Below, piece by piece: positions 13,296 through 45,101 of a stretch of 64,000 nucleotides of DNA (its first letter is position 1; each line of letters begins with the position of its first letter). The position numbers were made by a program, and so were the translations under genes. The notes beneath the pieces are model-generated. The model did not search any database. It was not told the origin of the DNA and saw only the letters and a program-made list of their open reading frames with translations. The stretch comes from Halorutilales archaeon Cl-col2-1 (GTDB lineage: Archaea > Halobacteriota > Halobacteria > Halobacteriales > Afararchaeaceae), in the NCBI GenBank assembly GCA_041891055.1, contig CP169074.1, forward strand, positions 1-64,000. Direction: 5' to 3'.

Positions 13296-13453
13296 GTCAT
13301 CTGGCACATATAGATGAGACTTCTGTATTTTGACATCCACCCCTGAAGGACGGGGATTCCCGAGGTTCTTATGTTACTCCCGTCAATCGGATGGTTGGGA
13401 ATCTAAGGTTTGTAGCCGACATCTACTAGGAGTGCCAAGCCCCTGTTATCCCT

Positions 13454-13474
13454 ATCCGACACTAAGTGTCGGAT
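13454..13474. repeat. Single 21-bp perfect hairpin inside the IS remnant
   Basis: ATCCGACAC-taa-GTGTCGGAT. Confidence 0.7.
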
Positions 13475-13672
13475 TTGGAATTACCTTGGTTTTACGTCGG
13501 ACGGTAGTCCATGCTTACTTTTGTTTCCCGTATGGGCGCACACTTCCTACATTACTACATATCCGACAATCACTCGGAAAGCGTGGGAGGACACCTACTT
13601 ACCTCCAATTAGGACTATATGAATATACGAGAGCAAGAACAAGTATCTTGTCCTCTGGGGATTAGACGGCTG

Positions 13673-13722
13673 TCGCAAGATCTCTGATCTTGCTACCCAC
13701 AAATTCGAAGAATTTGTGACTG
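13673..13722. mobile_element. 50-bp double-hairpin mini-element
   Basis: TC-GCAAGATC tct GATCTTGC-tacc-CACAAATTC gaa GAATTTGTG-AC, flanked by duplicated (C)TG. Confidence 0.8.
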
Positions 13723-13730
13723 TATCCCCG

Positions 13731-13835
13731 TGTGCAAATCTCTGATTTGCAGGGCATGACGAGACGCTTCGCGTCTCGTTGCAACCGAAAACGCGTAGCG
13801 TTTTCGAGGACTCAGAAATCAAAGATTTCTGAACG
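13731..13835. mobile_element. 49-bp double-hairpin element carrying a nested 56-bp double-hairpin element (13754-13809)
   Basis: Outer TGCAAATC tct GATTTGCA ... TCAGAAATC aaa GATTTCTGA with CG duplication; inner ACGAGACGC ttc GCGTCTCGT / CGAAAACGC gta GCGTTTTCG with AGG duplication. Confidence 0.8.
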
Positions 13836-13862
13836 CCCTACCCTCGTCGTATAAATCCGACT

Positions 13863-13974
13863 TCAAGCGAATCGGAGTGGTTCGAGACGGCAAGCCGTCT
13901 CGTCATGCCGAAAGGCGCAAGCGCCTTTCGTAGCAATTCGCGTACTCATCGAAAATCTCCGATTTTCGAGACAC
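13863..13974. mobile_element. Further nested double-hairpin elements (boundaries approximate)
   Basis: CGAGACGGC aa GCCGTCTCG and CGAAAGGCGC aa GCGCCTTTCG inside a split GCGAAT..ATTCGC stem, then TCGAAAATC tcc GATTTTCGA. Confidence 0.7.
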
Positions 13975-24853: not shown

Positions 24854-27607
24854 TTACAGCAGGTTCTCTATCGCGTCGTCCTCTGTAACTCCCTCGCGCT
24901 CCGCTCTGAAGTCGACTATTATACGGTGTCGGAGTACAGGAGGAGCCATAGCCTCTATGTCCTCCTCGCTGACGTGTGTGCGTCCCCTGAGGAGTGCGCG
25001 AGCCTTCGACGCGAGGACTAAACCCATGCTCGCACGTGGACTAGCGCCGTACTCTATCTGTTCGTCGTCACGCGTGTCGCCGACTATCCTTATCGCCTTG
25101 TCACGCAGGTCGTCGGCTATCGGAACCTGACGTGTGAGCTCCTGTATCTTCTGAAGCTCGTGCTGATCCATGACCTTCTGAAGCTGTATATTGTCGTCGA
25201 GACTCTTAGTGTACCTGTCGACTATCTCGACCTCCTCGTCGAAAGACGGGTAGTCGAGGACTATCTTCATCAGGAATCTGTCCGACTGAGCCTCTGGGAG
25301 AGGGTAGGTGTTGTGGTTAACCCCACACGCACCAAGTCCTGCGACGTAGTTGTGGCTCCCCGGGACTGAGAGACCTATGACAGAACCCTCGTACTCCTCC
25401 TCCTCTATCTGGGTGATGGGGTCGTAGAAGACGTCTGAGCCGACTAGTTCTCTGAGATACTCGGTCAGGTTTTCGGCTTCCTCAACACGTGACGAGTACT
25501 CGTCGGCGACGTACTCGACGGCTTCGGGCTCTTCCCTCTCGCCCTCGTAGGTCTTCCAGACTGCGTGTTTCGAGAGCGAGGTATTCTCGACTACCTGTGT
25601 CATCGAGACTCCACAGCCGTCTGCTATCTCACCCACATCCATTTCGTCTATCTCGGCGTTCTTTCTCTCATCGACCGTCTCCTCCATCTCAGTCACGAAC
25701 GAGTCGAGGTAGGAGTTAGCCATACGGTCGCGTTTCGTACGTGCCCATCTGTACGAGTTGTACCAGTCCTTCGAAGACACGTCGTCTACGCCGAGCATCT
25801 CGACGAGCCTCTCGGCTGCTTCGGAGTCGACAGGCGTGGTTCTGTGTGCCGAGTCGAACTCCTCGGCGTCAACGTCGGGTTCGTCACCTCGCCACTCGAA
25901 CTCTTCGGTGTACTTAGCTACGTCCTCGCCCTGTATACGTATCTCGTATGCGTCCTCTCTCTCGTATATCCACGGCAGTATACCGAAGCTGAGGAGAAGA
26001 TGTGCGACGAGGTTCGTAGTCTCCCTGTCCTTCTGTTTGAACGTGATTCTCCTCCTCTCACCGTCGAAGTGTGACTCGGTGAGTACGAATATCTCAAGGA
26101 ACGACCTCCTGAACTCCTCGGGTGCGCGCAGAAGACGGTTCGGCTCGTCTATGCTGTAACGTTCTCTGAGGTAGTCGACGAAGGGCTTCGAACTGATCTT
26201 GACTTCCTTTCCTCCTTTCTGTCTCGTCGTGTAGTCGAGTCCCAGTCTCTCGGCTATACCGATCCATCTTTCGAGCTTCTCAGTCAGGTTCTTCTGTGTG
26301 ACTCTCACCCCTGTGTCGGAGACTGATCCCTCGGCGAGAACGAATCCCACGAAGAAGCCCGCCTCCTCGTCGGTCATCTCGTCGTCGAATCTGTGTACCG
26401 TATGAGACTCGACGTAGTCGGCTTCTCTAATCTCAGAGTCTCGAAGAGCCTCACGTATCTCTTCACCGACTCTTGTCTGAGTTCTGGAGCCGTCGAGATG
26501 TCTCAGAACCTCGTCGTACGACGCCGACGTTATCTGAGACAGCTCCTTCTTCGAGAGACCCGACGCTGTCCTCAGACTGTCGAGTTCGTCGTGTGAGAGG
26601 TCTTTGTCCGCCCTCAGACGCTCGGTGAGACTCGTCACCTCGTCACGTCTCACGACACTGTACTCATCCCTGTCCGAGACTGAGTCGAGTGCTTCGTCGT
26701 GGCTCACGAACTCGCCGCTTCCTAACTCTAGCTTACGCGGTGTCACTAGATGGTCGCCCTCGTCGAGGTTGCGCGCCTTGACCCAGCTTATGACTCCCGA
26801 CCTGTTGACGAGGAAGGGATGGTTGTCCGAGACACGTATACGTCTCCCAGTCTTAGTCTCGAAGCTGTATATTTCGCCCTCGTAATCCTTCTCGTAGACC
26901 ATACAGTCGGTCTCGACCATCTCTCCCTCAGGATTCAGCGTCTGTGTCGTGGCGTCGATGTCGTAGAGACGCATCTCCACCCCGTCTCCTTCATCCGTCT
27001 CCGTCTCTGTCTCTCTCTCGTGTACCACCTCACCGTTCTGTCTCGCGTGTTCGAGTGCTTCGCTCGCTTTCCAGAGCTTACCGTTCATGTAGAGACTCTC
27101 GTCGGGATGTAGACTCCCTTCCTGGTCTATCGGGTTCTGTGTCGCGAGAACGAAGAAAGGGCGCGGCAGGTCGTAGGTATCACCGCTCGCAGTGACCTGT
27201 TTCTCCTGCATGGCTTCGAGGAGTGCTGCCTGTGTCTTAGGCGTCGCCCTGTTTATCTCGTCTGCGAGGACGATGTTGGCGAATATGGGACCTTTCTGGA
27301 ACTCGAACTCCTTCCTCGTCCCTGTGTCACGTATGACCTCCGTCCCGGTTATGTCCGACGGCATCAGGTCGGGGGTATTCTGTATACGTGAGAAATCGAG
27401 ATCTATGACGTCCGAGATAGTCCGTATCATCAGAGTCTTACCCAGACCCGGGTTACTCTCAAGCAGAGCGTTTCCGTCACATAACATCGTGGCGAGAACC
27501 TGTTCGAGAACCTCGTCCTGACCCACTATCTTCTTCGCTACCTCGTCCTTTACCTTCTGCATCTTCGACTGTACCTGTTGTAAGTTGTGAGAAGACCTGT
27601 CAGCCAT
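24854..27607 (-). CDS. moxR: MoxR AAA+ ATPase precursor containing an intein (spliced product about 315 aa)
   Basis: ESNPGLGKT Walker [46 protein letters not shown]|...|[19 protein letters not shown]. Confidence 0.93.
25310..27115 (-). mobile_element. 602-aa intein with LAGLIDADG homing endonuclease and two HTH-like inserts
   Basis: Begins SLHPDES, block B SDNHPF, LAGLIDADG-like [12 protein letters not shown] and [13 protein letters not shown], ends HNYVAG..VNHN followed by +1 Thr; removal restores [11 protein letters not shown]. Confidence 0.93.
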
Positions 27608-28601
27608 TATTATCACTTCCGCTTCTTATACGTACGTTGTATTCCTTTACGAGATCCGCGTCGTCTATCTTCTGCTGTTCCTCGAAGCCCGCTTGCTGTG
27701 ACTCGACCCCACCGCCGTTGCCCGAGTATCCGCTTGAGTCGTACTCCTCGGGTGAGGCTCCGCCGCCTGAACCCGAGCCCCCTCCACCCCGCTGCAAAGT
27801 GGCGTCGAGGTTCTGGGATCCCGACGAGACGTCCTCTGCCTCGCCTAAGACGCTGTCACCCGACTGGAGACCCTGGTATCCGGAGCCTCCCTGTCCTCCG
27901 CCGGCTCCCCCGCCTCCGCCGCCGCCGCTCGACTGTGAGGTCGACGAATCGGAACCCAGGATTCCCGACGGCGAGTTGAGCGCGGGCTGGTCGGAGTACG
28001 TCATGTAGAATGCTCCGATAGCCATCCCGAATATGAGGAGTATGCTGACGAATATACGTCTGTTGCTGAGTAGACCCGCGCTCGATGTCGAACGTAGACG
28101 TTCGACGACATCATCGTAGAGCGCAACAGCGACCGGGTTTTCGTCGTCCTCTTTCTTAGCGATGTCCCTCGCCGTCCTGAGAGCCTCCTCAATCTCGGGG
28201 TTGACTGACTCGAACTTCTCAACCTCGGAGTAGACGTAAGCACGGTAGGCGAAGCTCACCACGAAGACGACGACTCCGACGCCGAGTGTCACGAGAGCAC
28301 CCCCCGAGGGCTCTATTGGCGACTCGACAGGTGAGGCTCCGATAGACGCGAAAGCCGAGTTCATGAGAGACAGAACTGACGACGGAATCGGAACCGTGAC
28401 CGAATCGGGTATCTGGCTTATCTCGAAGAGAGCGAGAAGAAGGTTGGTCGCCATCAAGACGAGAGAAGAGTCGACGACCGCATAGATAAACGAAGCCTTG
28501 TAGCCCTCGCGACGTATCTCCTTGAGCGCCTTACGTATCTTCTTACGCTCGTTCTCGACTGAGACCTCGGACGACGACTTCGAAGCGCTTGCTCGTGACA
28601 T
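27600..28601 (-). CDS. Membrane protein of the MoxR cluster with Gly/Ser-rich extracellular linker
   Basis: 3 TM segments, [13 protein letters not shown] motif, poly-G/S region; operonic overlap. Confidence 0.8.
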
Positions 28602-35350: not shown

Positions 35351-35554
35351 GCCTCAGACAAGACGCGGAGACACTTACATCTTCAGTTTGGACACCGGCG
35401 TGAGAGTTATACGTCCTCAGTCTCCAAACTCTTCCATGGCATCTGTTAGCATCAGTATACCCGACGAGATACACGACGAAGTTCTCGAGTACGCCGAGAA
35501 ACATACCGAGTCGGTCGATCAGGCTTACGTGAAGTACCTCGGGGACAAGCCCCG

Positions 35555-35652
35555 TCACAAGATCTCCGATCTTGTTGGCACGTCAAACAAAGTTTGACGA
35601 ACGTCACGAGAACTTCGTTCTCGCGGGCTCGCAAATCTTCGATTTGCGAACG
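35555..35652. mobile_element. Two tandem 49-bp double-hairpin mini-elements
   Basis: CG|TC-ACAAGATC tcc GATCTTGT-tggca-CGTCAAAC aaa GTTTGACG-AA-CG|TC-a-CGAGAAC ttc GTTCTCG-cgggct-CGCAAATC ttc GATTTGCG-AA-CG. Confidence 0.85.
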
Positions 35653-35967
35653 AGGCTTCGCCGTTTTGGGTCTGCACCGCACCCGCAGGCGAATTTAATT
35701 CCTCCCGACCTTGTGCATCAGCACTTGGCTGGAATTAACACCCGAACACCTCGATAGTGTCCGTGGGAGTCGGTCGCTCCACCACGACCCGATAGTGCCC
35801 GTCTCACCGCCGTAGCGGGTTTTTGAGAGGCACCACATTTCCATAGTTTACTCAGTCAGCGTTGGATTAAGGTCTTTAACCCGTCTTTGGAGTTTTTCTG
35901 ACTGTTACTCTACTATGCGAACCGTGGTTAGTTAAAAGTTCGTGTCGGCTTCACCCTCGGGGTCAAG

Positions 35968-36018
35968 TCAAGGAAAATCTTTGATTTTCCGTATCCCAAA
36001 AAGCTCTGCTTTTTGAAG
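35968..36018. mobile_element. 51-bp double-hairpin mini-element in the loop of the IS left-end hairpin
   Basis: TC-aa-GGAAAATC ttt GATTTTCC-gtatcc-CAAAAAGC tct GCTTTTTG with AAG duplicated; removal restores perfect CCTCGGGGTC aa GACCCCGAGG. Confidence 0.85.
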
Positions 36019-36157
36019 ACCCCGAGGCACTCGCCTTGCTTTCTGTAGAACTCGTTGAGTTCGCACTCAACAACGTCGAACATGACCCCGACGAGGACAC
36101 CTACATAATGTGACTCTAACGGGACTGTTTTTAGTGCCCAAGCCGTACTCCGAGTAA

Positions 36158-43747: not shown

Positions 43748-45004
43748 CTAGAAAGTCGACATCTCGCCGTGTATTATGTCACGTGTGAGGTCAGTCACAT
43801 TTTCGAGGGCGTCGTCTGTGATCGACTCTATCTCGTACTCGACGTCGGAGAGTTCGACGCCTTCCTCTGTCTGAACCTGGAGACCGGCTATCTGTGGCTC
43901 GTCTATCGGCTTTCCTATCTGTGACAGGAGCTTTACCCTCAGGTCTTCTATGCCGTCGACCTCGTCGACGACCTTCCTCGCTATACGTATCGAGAGGAGG
44001 TTGTAGATCTTGCCTATGTGGTTGACGGGGTTCTTTCCGCTCGTGGCTTCGAGGCTCATGTTCCTACTCGGGGTTATGAGACCGTTGGCGCGGTTGCCCC
44101 TTCCGACGCTTCCGTCGTCTCCCATCTCCGCGCTCGTTCCCGTCTCTGTGAGGTAGAAAGTCCCCTCGTCCCGAGGACTCTTTGAGTCCTCGTGTGCACG
44201 CGAATCTTCAGATTCGCGAACGTCGTAGTCGTCGGCGGTGTTGACTGCGACGTTGAGGTCTCTGTCAGTGTGTTTCTCGGCTGTCGAGGCAACGAACTCC
44301 CTCACGTCCTCCATCACGCTGATATACTCGTCGGCGTCCTCGACGTACTCCGAGACCGTCGCCGCCGCGACCGTGAGATCTAACGTCTCGCCCTCGCGTT
44401 TCCCCATCACTTTGACGTCCTCTCCCACCGCGGGAATCTCGTGTCTCAGGTCTTCGTAGATCTGTGTCTCGGTCTCGTAGACTACCTTCTCGGTCTCGGA
44501 GAAGGGCGCGTGACCCACTCCGAACGAGGTGTCGTTTGCCTTCGGAACCGCACCGTCCTCGAGCTTGAAGACGTCCTTGAGATCTGTCGACCCCTCGCCC
44601 ATACGTACGTCGACGACGACCTCGGATTCAAGGTCGATATTCTGGAGAGTGTCGTCGATATAGTCGCGTGCCGCCTTGACAGCGAGGGTGTCGGTGGGTA
44701 TCGCCTCGCCCTCGAACTCCTTAGTCGCCCTTCCGACTATCAGGACGTAGATCGGCTCGACGACCTCACCGCCACCGAAGTCGGGCTGGCTCCGTCCTGC
44801 GACCAACTGACACTCATCTGTGTTGTGGTGGAGGACAGCACCGAACCTGTCGAGGTACTCCTGAGACAGCGCGCGCATCACCGACTCCGCAATGCCGTCA
44901 CAGATAGAGTCGGGATGTCCCATTCCCTTTCTCTCGGCGAGCTCGATCCTCTGTTGATCCACAGGGATCTCGTCGAGAGACTCCACTCTTATATTACGCT
45001 CCAT
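43748..45004 (-). CDS. mat: Archaeal methionine adenosyltransferase with an 18-codon insertion (start ATG 45004)
   Basis: [56 protein letters not shown]. Confidence 0.96.
44171..44224. mobile_element. 54-bp double-hairpin mini-element inserted in frame in mat
   Basis: CGTC direct repeat (44167-70 / 44221-24); CGAGGACTC ttt GAGTCCTCG-tgtgca-CGCGAATC ttca GATTCGCG-AA; removal gives ADDYDEG. Confidence 0.85.
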
Positions 45005-45101
45005 ACACAGAGTCGTCGCCGGCTGATCTAATAACTTCTGATCACATCTCCCGACGTGGGTTAAAGTTATGAGTATAGACTCCTCTAACATAACCTAACG
45101 C

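Follow-up and report, generated by a model that had tools for sequence, protein, structure and literature searches.

How did two perfect DNA hairpins come to lie, in frame, inside the gene of a conserved housekeeping enzyme? This question is raised by the first 64,000 nucleotides of contig CP169074.1 of Halorutilales archaeon Cl-col2-1 (GCA_041891055.1), hereafter the window, in which the gene for the archaeal S-adenosylmethionine (SAM) synthetase, or methionine adenosyltransferase (MAT), carries an insert of 54 nt. Essential genes that carry palindromic repeats in frame are a textbook curiosity, known from Rickettsia and a handful of other bacteria. The same phenomenon is now seen in archaea, in an essential enzyme, and it is tied to a hairpin family present at 83 archaeal loci among the matches listed. 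Judged by titles and the openings of abstracts, the open-access literature and bioRxiv yielded no description of in-frame hairpin or palindromic elements in archaeal genes, nor of this motif. According to our analysis, the MAT insert is probably an in-frame copy of a proliferating hairpin family.

The insert in the SAM synthetase gene

A single long minus-strand open reading frame (ORF) extends across 43748–45091, and its likely start is the Met of MERNIR, the codon of which lies at 45004; the 418 aa counted from this Met equal the length of the protein listed as P0001 in the protein search. The product matches Pfam family PF01941 with E=1.9e-171 over profile positions 1–395 of 395, solved archaeal enzymes match it at E=8e-132 and weaker, and it keeps all 131 columns that are invariant over 120 aligned sequences. 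The full-length profile match, the solved enzymes and the conserved motifs all place the gene in the MAT family, in which its closest relative is about 68–71% identical.

The plus strand at this site reads CGTC, c, hairpin 1, the spacer tgtgca, hairpin 2, aa and CGTC, and folding of the DNA as well as of the RNA gives both hairpins as predicted. Direct reading of the sequence thus bore out the description given in the earlier note, which was of an in-frame 54-bp unit with two perfect stems and a CGTC direct repeat. The same note had expected MAT orthologues to show an 18-aa gap, and this is what we found: the insert columns are empty in 16/16 close orthologues and in 119/119 listed orthologues, and alignments to three solved archaeal enzymes place a gap of 17–18 residues precisely at the insert. 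Excision of V262–D279 leaves NTADDYDEGTFYL, matching Halorubrum-type orthologues (NTADDYDEGSVYL), while MAFFT favours an 18-residue insert placed before RDEG, where the nearest relatives read NTADD-RDEG. As far as the alignments tell, the two parses are equally possible, and the boundary is uncertain by 6 nt.

The stretch around the insertion site is very conserved except at the site itself, where variability is highest, and a 2-residue indel is present there in 3/119 orthologues. Here the insert would place 18 hydrophilic residues, acidic and serine-rich in composition, at a variable turn immediately upstream of a conserved 17-residue block. It had been argued earlier that coding inserts of this kind have lengths divisible by three (54 and 48 nt), in line with selection. 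This is true of the 54 nt, but the argument is weak, because an insert can persist in an intact gene only if it preserves the frame; furthermore, the 48-nt coding insert was not found in the window.

Two simpler explanations bear on the insert itself. An assembly or sequencing artefact is hardly credible, given an in-frame insert whose architecture is shared with other units of the window and with many independent assemblies, in a protein that the protein search lists on a 1.94-Mb contig. Alternatively, the segment could be removed from the transcript as a mini-intron and never be translated. Nothing direct speaks for this; genes for an RtcB ligase and an archease are present in the window, but these are general tRNA-splicing factors. 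The RNA fold of 44140–44260 gives two independent hairpins with no helix joining the boundaries, and the purine-rich GACG-type flanks cannot pair, so that no bulge-helix-bulge motif, in which two 3-nt bulges flank a 4-bp helix, results (no dedicated motif search was run). In addition, the frame is kept, with no stop, in all four inserts that were checked against solved homologues, which removal at the RNA level would not require, although the ORF screen behind three of these would have missed copies that break the frame. We therefore regard a mini-intron as very unlikely.

The hairpin family in the window and in other genomes

The window was scanned for perfect stems of at least 7 bp with loops of 2–5 nt, and hairpins separated by at most 12 nt were counted as adjacent pairs. 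The scan gave 34 perfect hairpins, half of which (17) have one architecture and fall into four groups: 13675–13969 (nine hairpins), 35557–35649 (four), 35972–36015 (two) and the MAT gene (two). The double hairpin in the MAT gene is not a product of chance, because the window holds 10 adjacent pairs against 0.12 expected (100 first-order Markov simulations yielded 12 in total, with a maximum of 2 in any one). The family unit is a perfect palindrome of 19–21 nt. Its stem of 8–10 bp has an A-rich 5' arm and is closed by a C-G pair, and its 3-nt loop reads T-N-Y on one strand and R-N-A on the other. Over the window, stems measure 7–10 bp (mostly 8–9) and begin mostly with CG or GC, the closing pair is C-G in 94%, the 5' arm is A-rich, and the loop has 3 nt in 13/16 clustered hairpins. 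The units are mostly intergenic and stand in pairs or arrays with gaps of 4–7 nt (Table 1). All 17 stems are perfect despite their differing sequences and contain no G-T pairs; a search allowing one mismatch added no member to the family, and no further copy of either MAT hairpin was found in the window at up to 3 mismatches.

Table 1. Positions of the MAT gene, its insert and the related features of the window
Feature	Position	Strand	Basis and remarks
Archaeal S-adenosylmethionine synthetase (methionine adenosyltransferase) gene	43748..45004	-	418 aa, intact; ORF and Pfam PF01941
In-frame insert, 54 nt / 18 codons, V262–D279	44168..44221	-	Gap against solved enzymes and orthologues
Alternative parse of the insert, Y260–P277	44174..44227	-	MAFFT alignment
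CGTC, left copy of 4-nt direct repeat	44167..44170	+	Sequence reading
Hairpin 1, 9-bp perfect stem, 3-nt loop TTT	44172..44192		Hairpin scan, folds
Hairpin 2, 9-bp perfect stem, loop TC	44199..44218		Hairpin scan; folds as 8 bp with a 4-nt loop
CGTC, right copy of 4-nt direct repeat	44221..44224	+	Sequence reading; overlaps the a(a)cgt post-hairpin tail of the family
Intergenic array of 9 perfect hairpins with the architecture of the MAT unit	13675..13969		Hairpin scan
Two abutting 49-nt units (35553–35601, 35602–35650), 4 hairpins	35553..35650	+	Hairpin scan, fold
73-nt composite, 10-bp outer inverted repeat around two family hairpins (35972–36015)	35955..36027		DNA fold
sot0042-like sub-threshold RNA match, possible IS605-type remnant beside the 13.7-kb array	13336..13486	-	Rfam, 47.3 bits

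The closest counterparts of the MAT unit in the window are the two abutting intergenic units, each of which is laid out in the same way (CGTC, 0–1 nt, hairpin, 5–6 nt, hairpin, a(a)), with one CGTC common to both. Among the lengths given earlier for non-coding units (49, 49, 49, 50 and 56 nt), we recovered two of exactly 49 nt. Two other pairs lie within an outer stem and fold as three-way junctions: the first pair of the large array, which a short outer stem encloses (fold of 13655–13730), and the 73-nt composite, for which the DNA fold reaches -21.9 kcal/mol (z = -6.6) and a three-way junction is predicted. At gathering score, Rfam recognized two tRNAs only in the window, and it left the arrays uncovered both there and in 20 other loci.

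A looser search of the coding regions for degenerate double hairpins found no second convincing internal in-frame coding insert in the window, and a general search for short-distance repeats returned mostly coding-sequence palindromes. The last ~14 codons of a small ORF at 35436–35597 (+), which encodes 53 aa without a Pfam match, derive from the hairpin unit 35553–35601; this unit may have replaced or extended the C-terminus. Between the two neighbouring hairpin groups, about 300 nt of non-coding sequence (35650–35955) contain neither an ORF nor any Rfam match with E below 0.12; they may be an RNA gene of unknown kind or an element's core that has decayed.

Beyond the window, a genome collection was scanned with one 21-letter motif, TCGMAAATCTYYGATTTKCGA, which occurs twice in the window and so covers two of its hairpins. 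At least 118 loci were matched, where our information-content estimate puts the chance expectation at ~4–9 matches; the source genome is absent among the matches listed. Judged by record titles, the listed matches comprise 83 archaeal and 35 bacterial loci, many of which are copies from the same assemblies and not independent. The haloarchaeal ones include Halorutilus, Natrialba, Halobellus, Halalkalirubrum and Natronocalculus; the other archaea include Methanobacterium and relatives, Methanosarcinales, Methanolliviera, Methanoliparum, Methanocorpusculum, Woese-, Pace- and Nanoarchaeota. The bacterial loci belong mostly to Oscillospiraceae and Lachnospiraceae, where the hairpin has conserved flanks of its own.

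The archaeal matches typically stand in arrays of differing perfect hairpins, with 11 in L042, 10 in L021 and 9 in L086. Three-nt loops were found in 219/240 clustered archaeal hairpins, a figure in which the searched hairpin is counted and which, like the stem counts, is biased by the search pattern; in pyrimidine-rich orientation the loops are mostly TTT, TTC, TCC, TAC, TCT or TAT. The context tggc-hairpin-acg(t) is common to 10/19 haloarchaeal copies among the matches listed, and the MAT unit ends in aacgt. The arm of MAT hairpin 2, CGCGAATC, recurs together with its aacg tail in an array of another genome (L017).

Several of the matched loci have larger structures of their own. In rumen and gut Oscillospiraceae (L001, L002, L004, L015, L025, L030, L040, L078, L080, L087, L103, L109 and others), the core hairpin is part of a repeated element with conserved G-rich flanks, gggggctg...ctggggga, and GTCTGAAATC...GATTTCAGAC often accompanies it as a second hairpin; to all appearance, the core is shared here by a bacterial repeat family of its own. 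In Methanobacterium-type loci (L042 940–1000, L059 3985–4060, L021 170–260 and L053 3960–4109), two to three family hairpins lie inside a longer outer inverted repeat, ccctcaaac...gtttgggg, and together with it make up a composite element. GC-rich haloarchaeal assemblies (L007, L023, L027, L033, L045, L048 and L086) contain multi-hairpin composites amid the repeated words gggactgaaaggggcc and cagaaagccccc, which suggests that the hairpins are one part of a larger repeated element there.

In-frame copies are not confined to the MAT gene. ORFs running through the matched hairpin and reaching at least 120 nt beyond it in both directions were selected by a screen that is blind to frame-breaking copies, and 24 of them, together with an ORF of L053, were scanned against Pfam. 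Eleven spanning ORFs were assigned to Pfam families. Four of them encode TnpB (L009, L051, L061 and L072), and the others a mevalonate kinase (L043), the fumarase beta subunit (L050), CobN (L093), a phosphatidylserine decarboxylase (L116), an HVO_A0114-family protein (L028), a DHH/RecJ-like nuclease (L053) and a Burkholderia LeuA (L026), the last of which may be a chance match. In comparison with solved homologues, there are ~16 extra residues at the hairpins of the mevalonate kinase, 16 at those of the fumarase and ~36, between two aligned domains, in the RecJ-like protein. The CobN and phosphatidylserine decarboxylase genes are only probable cases of in-frame inserts; for the latter, no solved homologue was found by sequence.

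As listed, the RecJ-like ORF contains two related three-hairpin arrays, one of which lies upstream of the region that aligns to solved homologues. In three haloarchaeal genera (L028, L054 and L104), homologous genes of the HVO_A0114 family contain a hairpin pair at one and the same site, with flanks 85–89% identical. To judge by these sequences, the insert is either old or travelling with a mobile gene.

Proposed spread of the family and perfection of its stems

The age of the MAT insertion cannot be read from its stems. It had been proposed that perfect pairing implies a recent event; this does not follow, because the whole family is characterized by perfect stems, as seen in all 17 stems of the window and in diverged copies elsewhere. 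In three diverged TnpB genes, the flanks of which are 71–91% identical, the two inserted hairpins are invariant in 36/36 stem columns, half of them fixed by the search pattern, compared with 68% of flank columns. The unselected neighbouring hairpin, taken alone, is invariant in 18/18 stem columns, for which the probability at the flank rate is ~1e-3; in a second trio of genes, 12/12 unselected stem columns are invariant, which is not significant. Because diverged copies are uniformly perfect and G-T pairs are absent from the window stems, these comparisons suggest that either a DNA-level process or selection preserves the perfect stems. Imperfect members of the family do exist, as seen in a comparison of haloarchaeal arrays that included L017.

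Selection would be expected if the hairpins were functional signals, either protein-binding DNA sites or structured RNAs, and the MAT copy were kept for that function. The conservation of the stems above the surrounding coding sequence is in keeping with this, as are the constraint on loop positions 1 and 3 and the occurrence of the core hairpin in distant phyla. However, no Rfam family covers the arrays, the absence of G-T pairs from the 17 window stems argues against selection purely at the RNA level, and the hairpins are scattered, lying in intergenic regions, on the 5' sides of genes or inside genes that are unrelated to one another. We consider a selected signal unlikely.

A DNA-level process may have left its trace in the loops. 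Template switching within a palindrome yields inverted loops, as is established for quasipalindromes. By our reading, 3/10 haloarchaeal copies have the complementary loop when set against the conserved tggc...acg(t) flanks, an outcome expected of template switching. Local de novo formation of the palindromes by snap-back or template-switch repair, with no pre-existing element, would account for perfect stems, for loop inversions in the family and for the CGTC microhomology at the junction. Against it, the arms are not copied from flanking MAT sequence, the layout is that of the intergenic units of the window, and the arm and tail of hairpin 2 recur in another genome. This, too, is unlikely, and marginally less probable than a selected signal.

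The copy of a proliferating family that we favour for the MAT insert would have arisen as follows. The 54-bp segment would be a copy of a small non-coding, non-autonomous double-hairpin repeat, inserted in frame into the SAM synthetase gene. Such an element would spread as single-stranded hairpin DNA by means of a hairpin-recognizing HUH/tyrosine transposase supplied in trans, and would insert next to a short target word, here CGTC; such a route is assumed for bacterial REP/RPE repeats and for the IS605-derived PATEs of haloarchaea, both of which are compared below. Its stems would stay perfect either by template switching within the palindrome, with one arm re-copied from the other, or by selection. 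The MAT copy may have survived since 54 nt keeps the frame, since A-rich and T-rich arms avoid stops, and since a peptide that is acidic and rich in serine is well suited to a variable turn in a protein of a halophile.

The flanking words are compatible with more than one mode of insertion. CGTC stands at the MAT unit, at 35553 and at 35602, and TGTC at 13671. Beside clustered hairpins, CGTC or GACG was found in 19% of cases compared with 12% at random positions, which is not significant; the CGTC repeat need not be a target-site duplication. On both sides of the MAT unit, CGTC may be a target word together with the end of the element itself, or a 4-bp duplication. The second possibility would correspond to a cut-and-paste MITE (miniature inverted-repeat transposable element) moved by a DDE transposase. 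Flanking direct repeats of at least 4 nt are indeed enriched overall, with 16/106 clusters against 6.5 expected and 0/1000 permutations reaching 16; apart from the repeat at the MAT unit, CTGT surrounds the unit 13675–13718, and the 73-nt composite has a 10-bp terminal inverted repeat. Nevertheless, such repeats are missing in 85% of clusters, which speaks against a regular target-site duplication, and the MAT unit lacks terminal inverted repeats. The single CGTC common to the abutting units is a better fit to a target word than to a duplication, and no DDE transposase was found among the 58 window ORFs scanned. A DDE-type MITE is about as improbable as a selected signal.

Some links to IS605-type elements were revealed. 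Beside the 13.7-kb array, abutting the start of the CheF gene, Rfam gives a match to sot0042 that stays below threshold (47.3 bits, where the gathering score is 88; E=5e-11), with no tnpB ORF left there; sot0042 is an RNA associated with IS1341-type tnpB genes (PMC4615843). In the Halorutilus locus L051, a tnpA-like reading frame, which from its translation we take to be an IS200-type tnpA, precedes the Pfam-identified tnpB, and downstream of tnpB there is a perfect hairpin of the family architecture (10 bp, 3-nt loop) followed by acg; upstream of the tnpA-like frame of this locus, no obvious left-end hairpin was found. In L072, three family hairpins abut the upstream end of tnpB. An IS200/IS605-type tyrosine transposase may therefore be named as the specific enzyme class that spreads the family, but tentatively, at somewhat less than even confidence.

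Several points weigh against a proliferating family as the source of the MAT insert, in addition to the search-pattern bias in the stem and loop counts, the non-independence of many loci, the lack of significant CGTC enrichment and the scarcity of flanking repeats. The two hairpins of the unit differ from each other and the family is very diverse, unlike the ends of REP and IS605 elements, which are recognized by a sequence-specific transposase (REP elements are compared below). No transposase of any kind was identified by Pfam among the 58 window ORFs, nor was a REP-associated tyrosine transposase (RAYT). Among the sequences covered, we found neither an empty-site MAT allele nor a near-identical donor copy, the nearest MAT relative being as distant as stated above. 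The AlphaFold models are weak, with a mean predicted local distance difference test score (pLDDT) of 51 for 17 sequences and 66 for 120 sequences, and of ~30 over the insert. In the second model, the insert is a low-confidence coil after strand 249–254, and the conserved loop behind it is also of low confidence, so that a surface-loop location is not demonstrated by these models. That the 18 residues are translated is itself presumed.

A broader reading is possible, although we hold it with still less confidence than the enzyme class. Archaea from Halobacteria to Methanobacteria, Methanosarcinales and DPANN may share undescribed self-propagating perfect-hairpin modules, the sequences of which diversify while arm-copying at the DNA level keeps the stems perfect; arrays would grow by adjacent insertion, and essential genes, namely those of SAM synthetase, mevalonate kinase, fumarase and the RecJ-like nuclease, would be entered repeatedly in frame, possibly without a dedicated transposase. 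If this is true, perfect-hairpin modules would generally supply archaea with new protein loops. Should the family be mobile, it would provide a simple system in archaea in which to study the making of protein loops by selfish DNA. It would also allow one to test how palindromes remain perfect over long periods, and to ask whether minimal two-hairpin DNAs are moved by IS200/IS605-type enzymes or by something unknown. The results also concern annotation: the inserts lengthen conserved proteins, and the arrays inflate intergenic regions without any RNA-family match.

Two further loci of the window may be recorded here. Two neighbouring PIN-domain genes lie on opposite strands at 1138–2147, with AT-rich palindromes between and beside them. 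At 24857–27616 (-), a MoxR-type AAA ATPase gene is split by an intein with a LAGLIDADG homing-endonuclease domain (Pfam domains AAA_3, Intein_splicing, LAGLIDADG_3 and AAA_lid_2).

Comparison with known mobile palindromes

The earlier note likened the insert to Rickettsia palindromic elements (RPEs), and the comparison is a good one: other archaeal housekeeping genes also contain hairpin inserts in frame. As described in the relevant parts of PMC3733652 and PMC10969869, RPEs are, like the present family, short palindromic repeats that are mostly intergenic but also occur in frame inside conserved genes. The MAT insert, like an RPE, lies in frame in a conserved gene and is absent from orthologues, and the window holds at least six palindromic units in 64 kb. 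RPEs share a consensus and a conserved encoded peptide, whereas the hairpin sequences of the present family differ between units.

Bacterial repetitive extragenic palindromic (REP) sequences have been sorted into GTAG- and CGTC-tagged super-families, and the short elements RPE-4 and RPE-6 are CGTC REPs (Di Nocera et al., 2013, PMC3733652). The tag of this super-family is an unpaired CGTC, or TGTC/CCTC, on one side of the stem-loop; a CGTC word also lies at one end of the MAT unit, although the tag is not significantly enriched beside the clustered hairpins. In the portions of that paper relevant here, intragenic copies are often dimers coding about 20–30 residues and no dedicated transposase is known for CGTC REPs; bacteria only are treated, and "archaea" appears solely in the reference list. 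The 8–9-bp stem of CGTC REPs agrees with the stems of the window. CGTC REPs are further described there as having loops of 4–5 nt, stems whose first two positions are A/T, and a tail of CCA, whereas the present family has 3-nt loops, perfect stems that begin mostly with CG or GC, and tails of a(a)cg or tggc.

The REP, BIME (bacterial interspersed mosaic element) and REPIN (REP doublet forming hairpins) systems resemble the present family in other respects. In the passages of PMC2817692 that concern them, they are hairpins of 20–40 nt, clustered and in both orientations, that are thought to be handled as single strands by an IS200/IS605-type tyrosine transposase. In contrast to them, neighbouring hairpins of the present family differ in sequence. 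GTAG REPs, which go with a RAYT, have a GT(A/G)G head and a GC-rich imperfect palindrome, whereas the present family has no such head, and its stems are perfect and A-rich.

Mitochondrial double-hairpin elements are two-hairpin mobile units that spread intergenically and occasionally within genes. They differ in being organellar and, as far as is known, unrelated in sequence, and the likeness is one of general description. A MITE of the DDE type would have terminal inverted repeats, which the MAT unit lacks; the only outer repeat of this kind in the hairpin groups of the window is the 10-bp one at 35955–36027.

A close archaeal counterpart is provided by the palindrome-associated transposable elements (PATEs) of Haloquadratum walsbyi, which derive from IS605-type transposons and of which 52-bp, terminal-only versions may still move (Dyall-Smith et al., 2011, PMC3119063). 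According to the passages of that paper on their structure, PATEs are haloarchaeal, too short to code, without terminal inverted repeats or target duplications, and have near-terminal palindromes and a targeting word of 4–6 nt. The MAT unit is of similar size, has palindromes near its termini, and is likewise too short to code and without terminal inverted repeats; its 4-nt CGTC may be such a targeting word or a duplication. The 52-bp PATE contains one copy of a 19–22-bp palindrome, while the MAT unit has two different hairpins and almost no terminal sequence. The same passages mention no in-frame insertion in a housekeeping gene, and the likeness is one of description. Overall, the MAT unit works like a CGTC REP or RPE and like a PATE, but fits neither definition fully.

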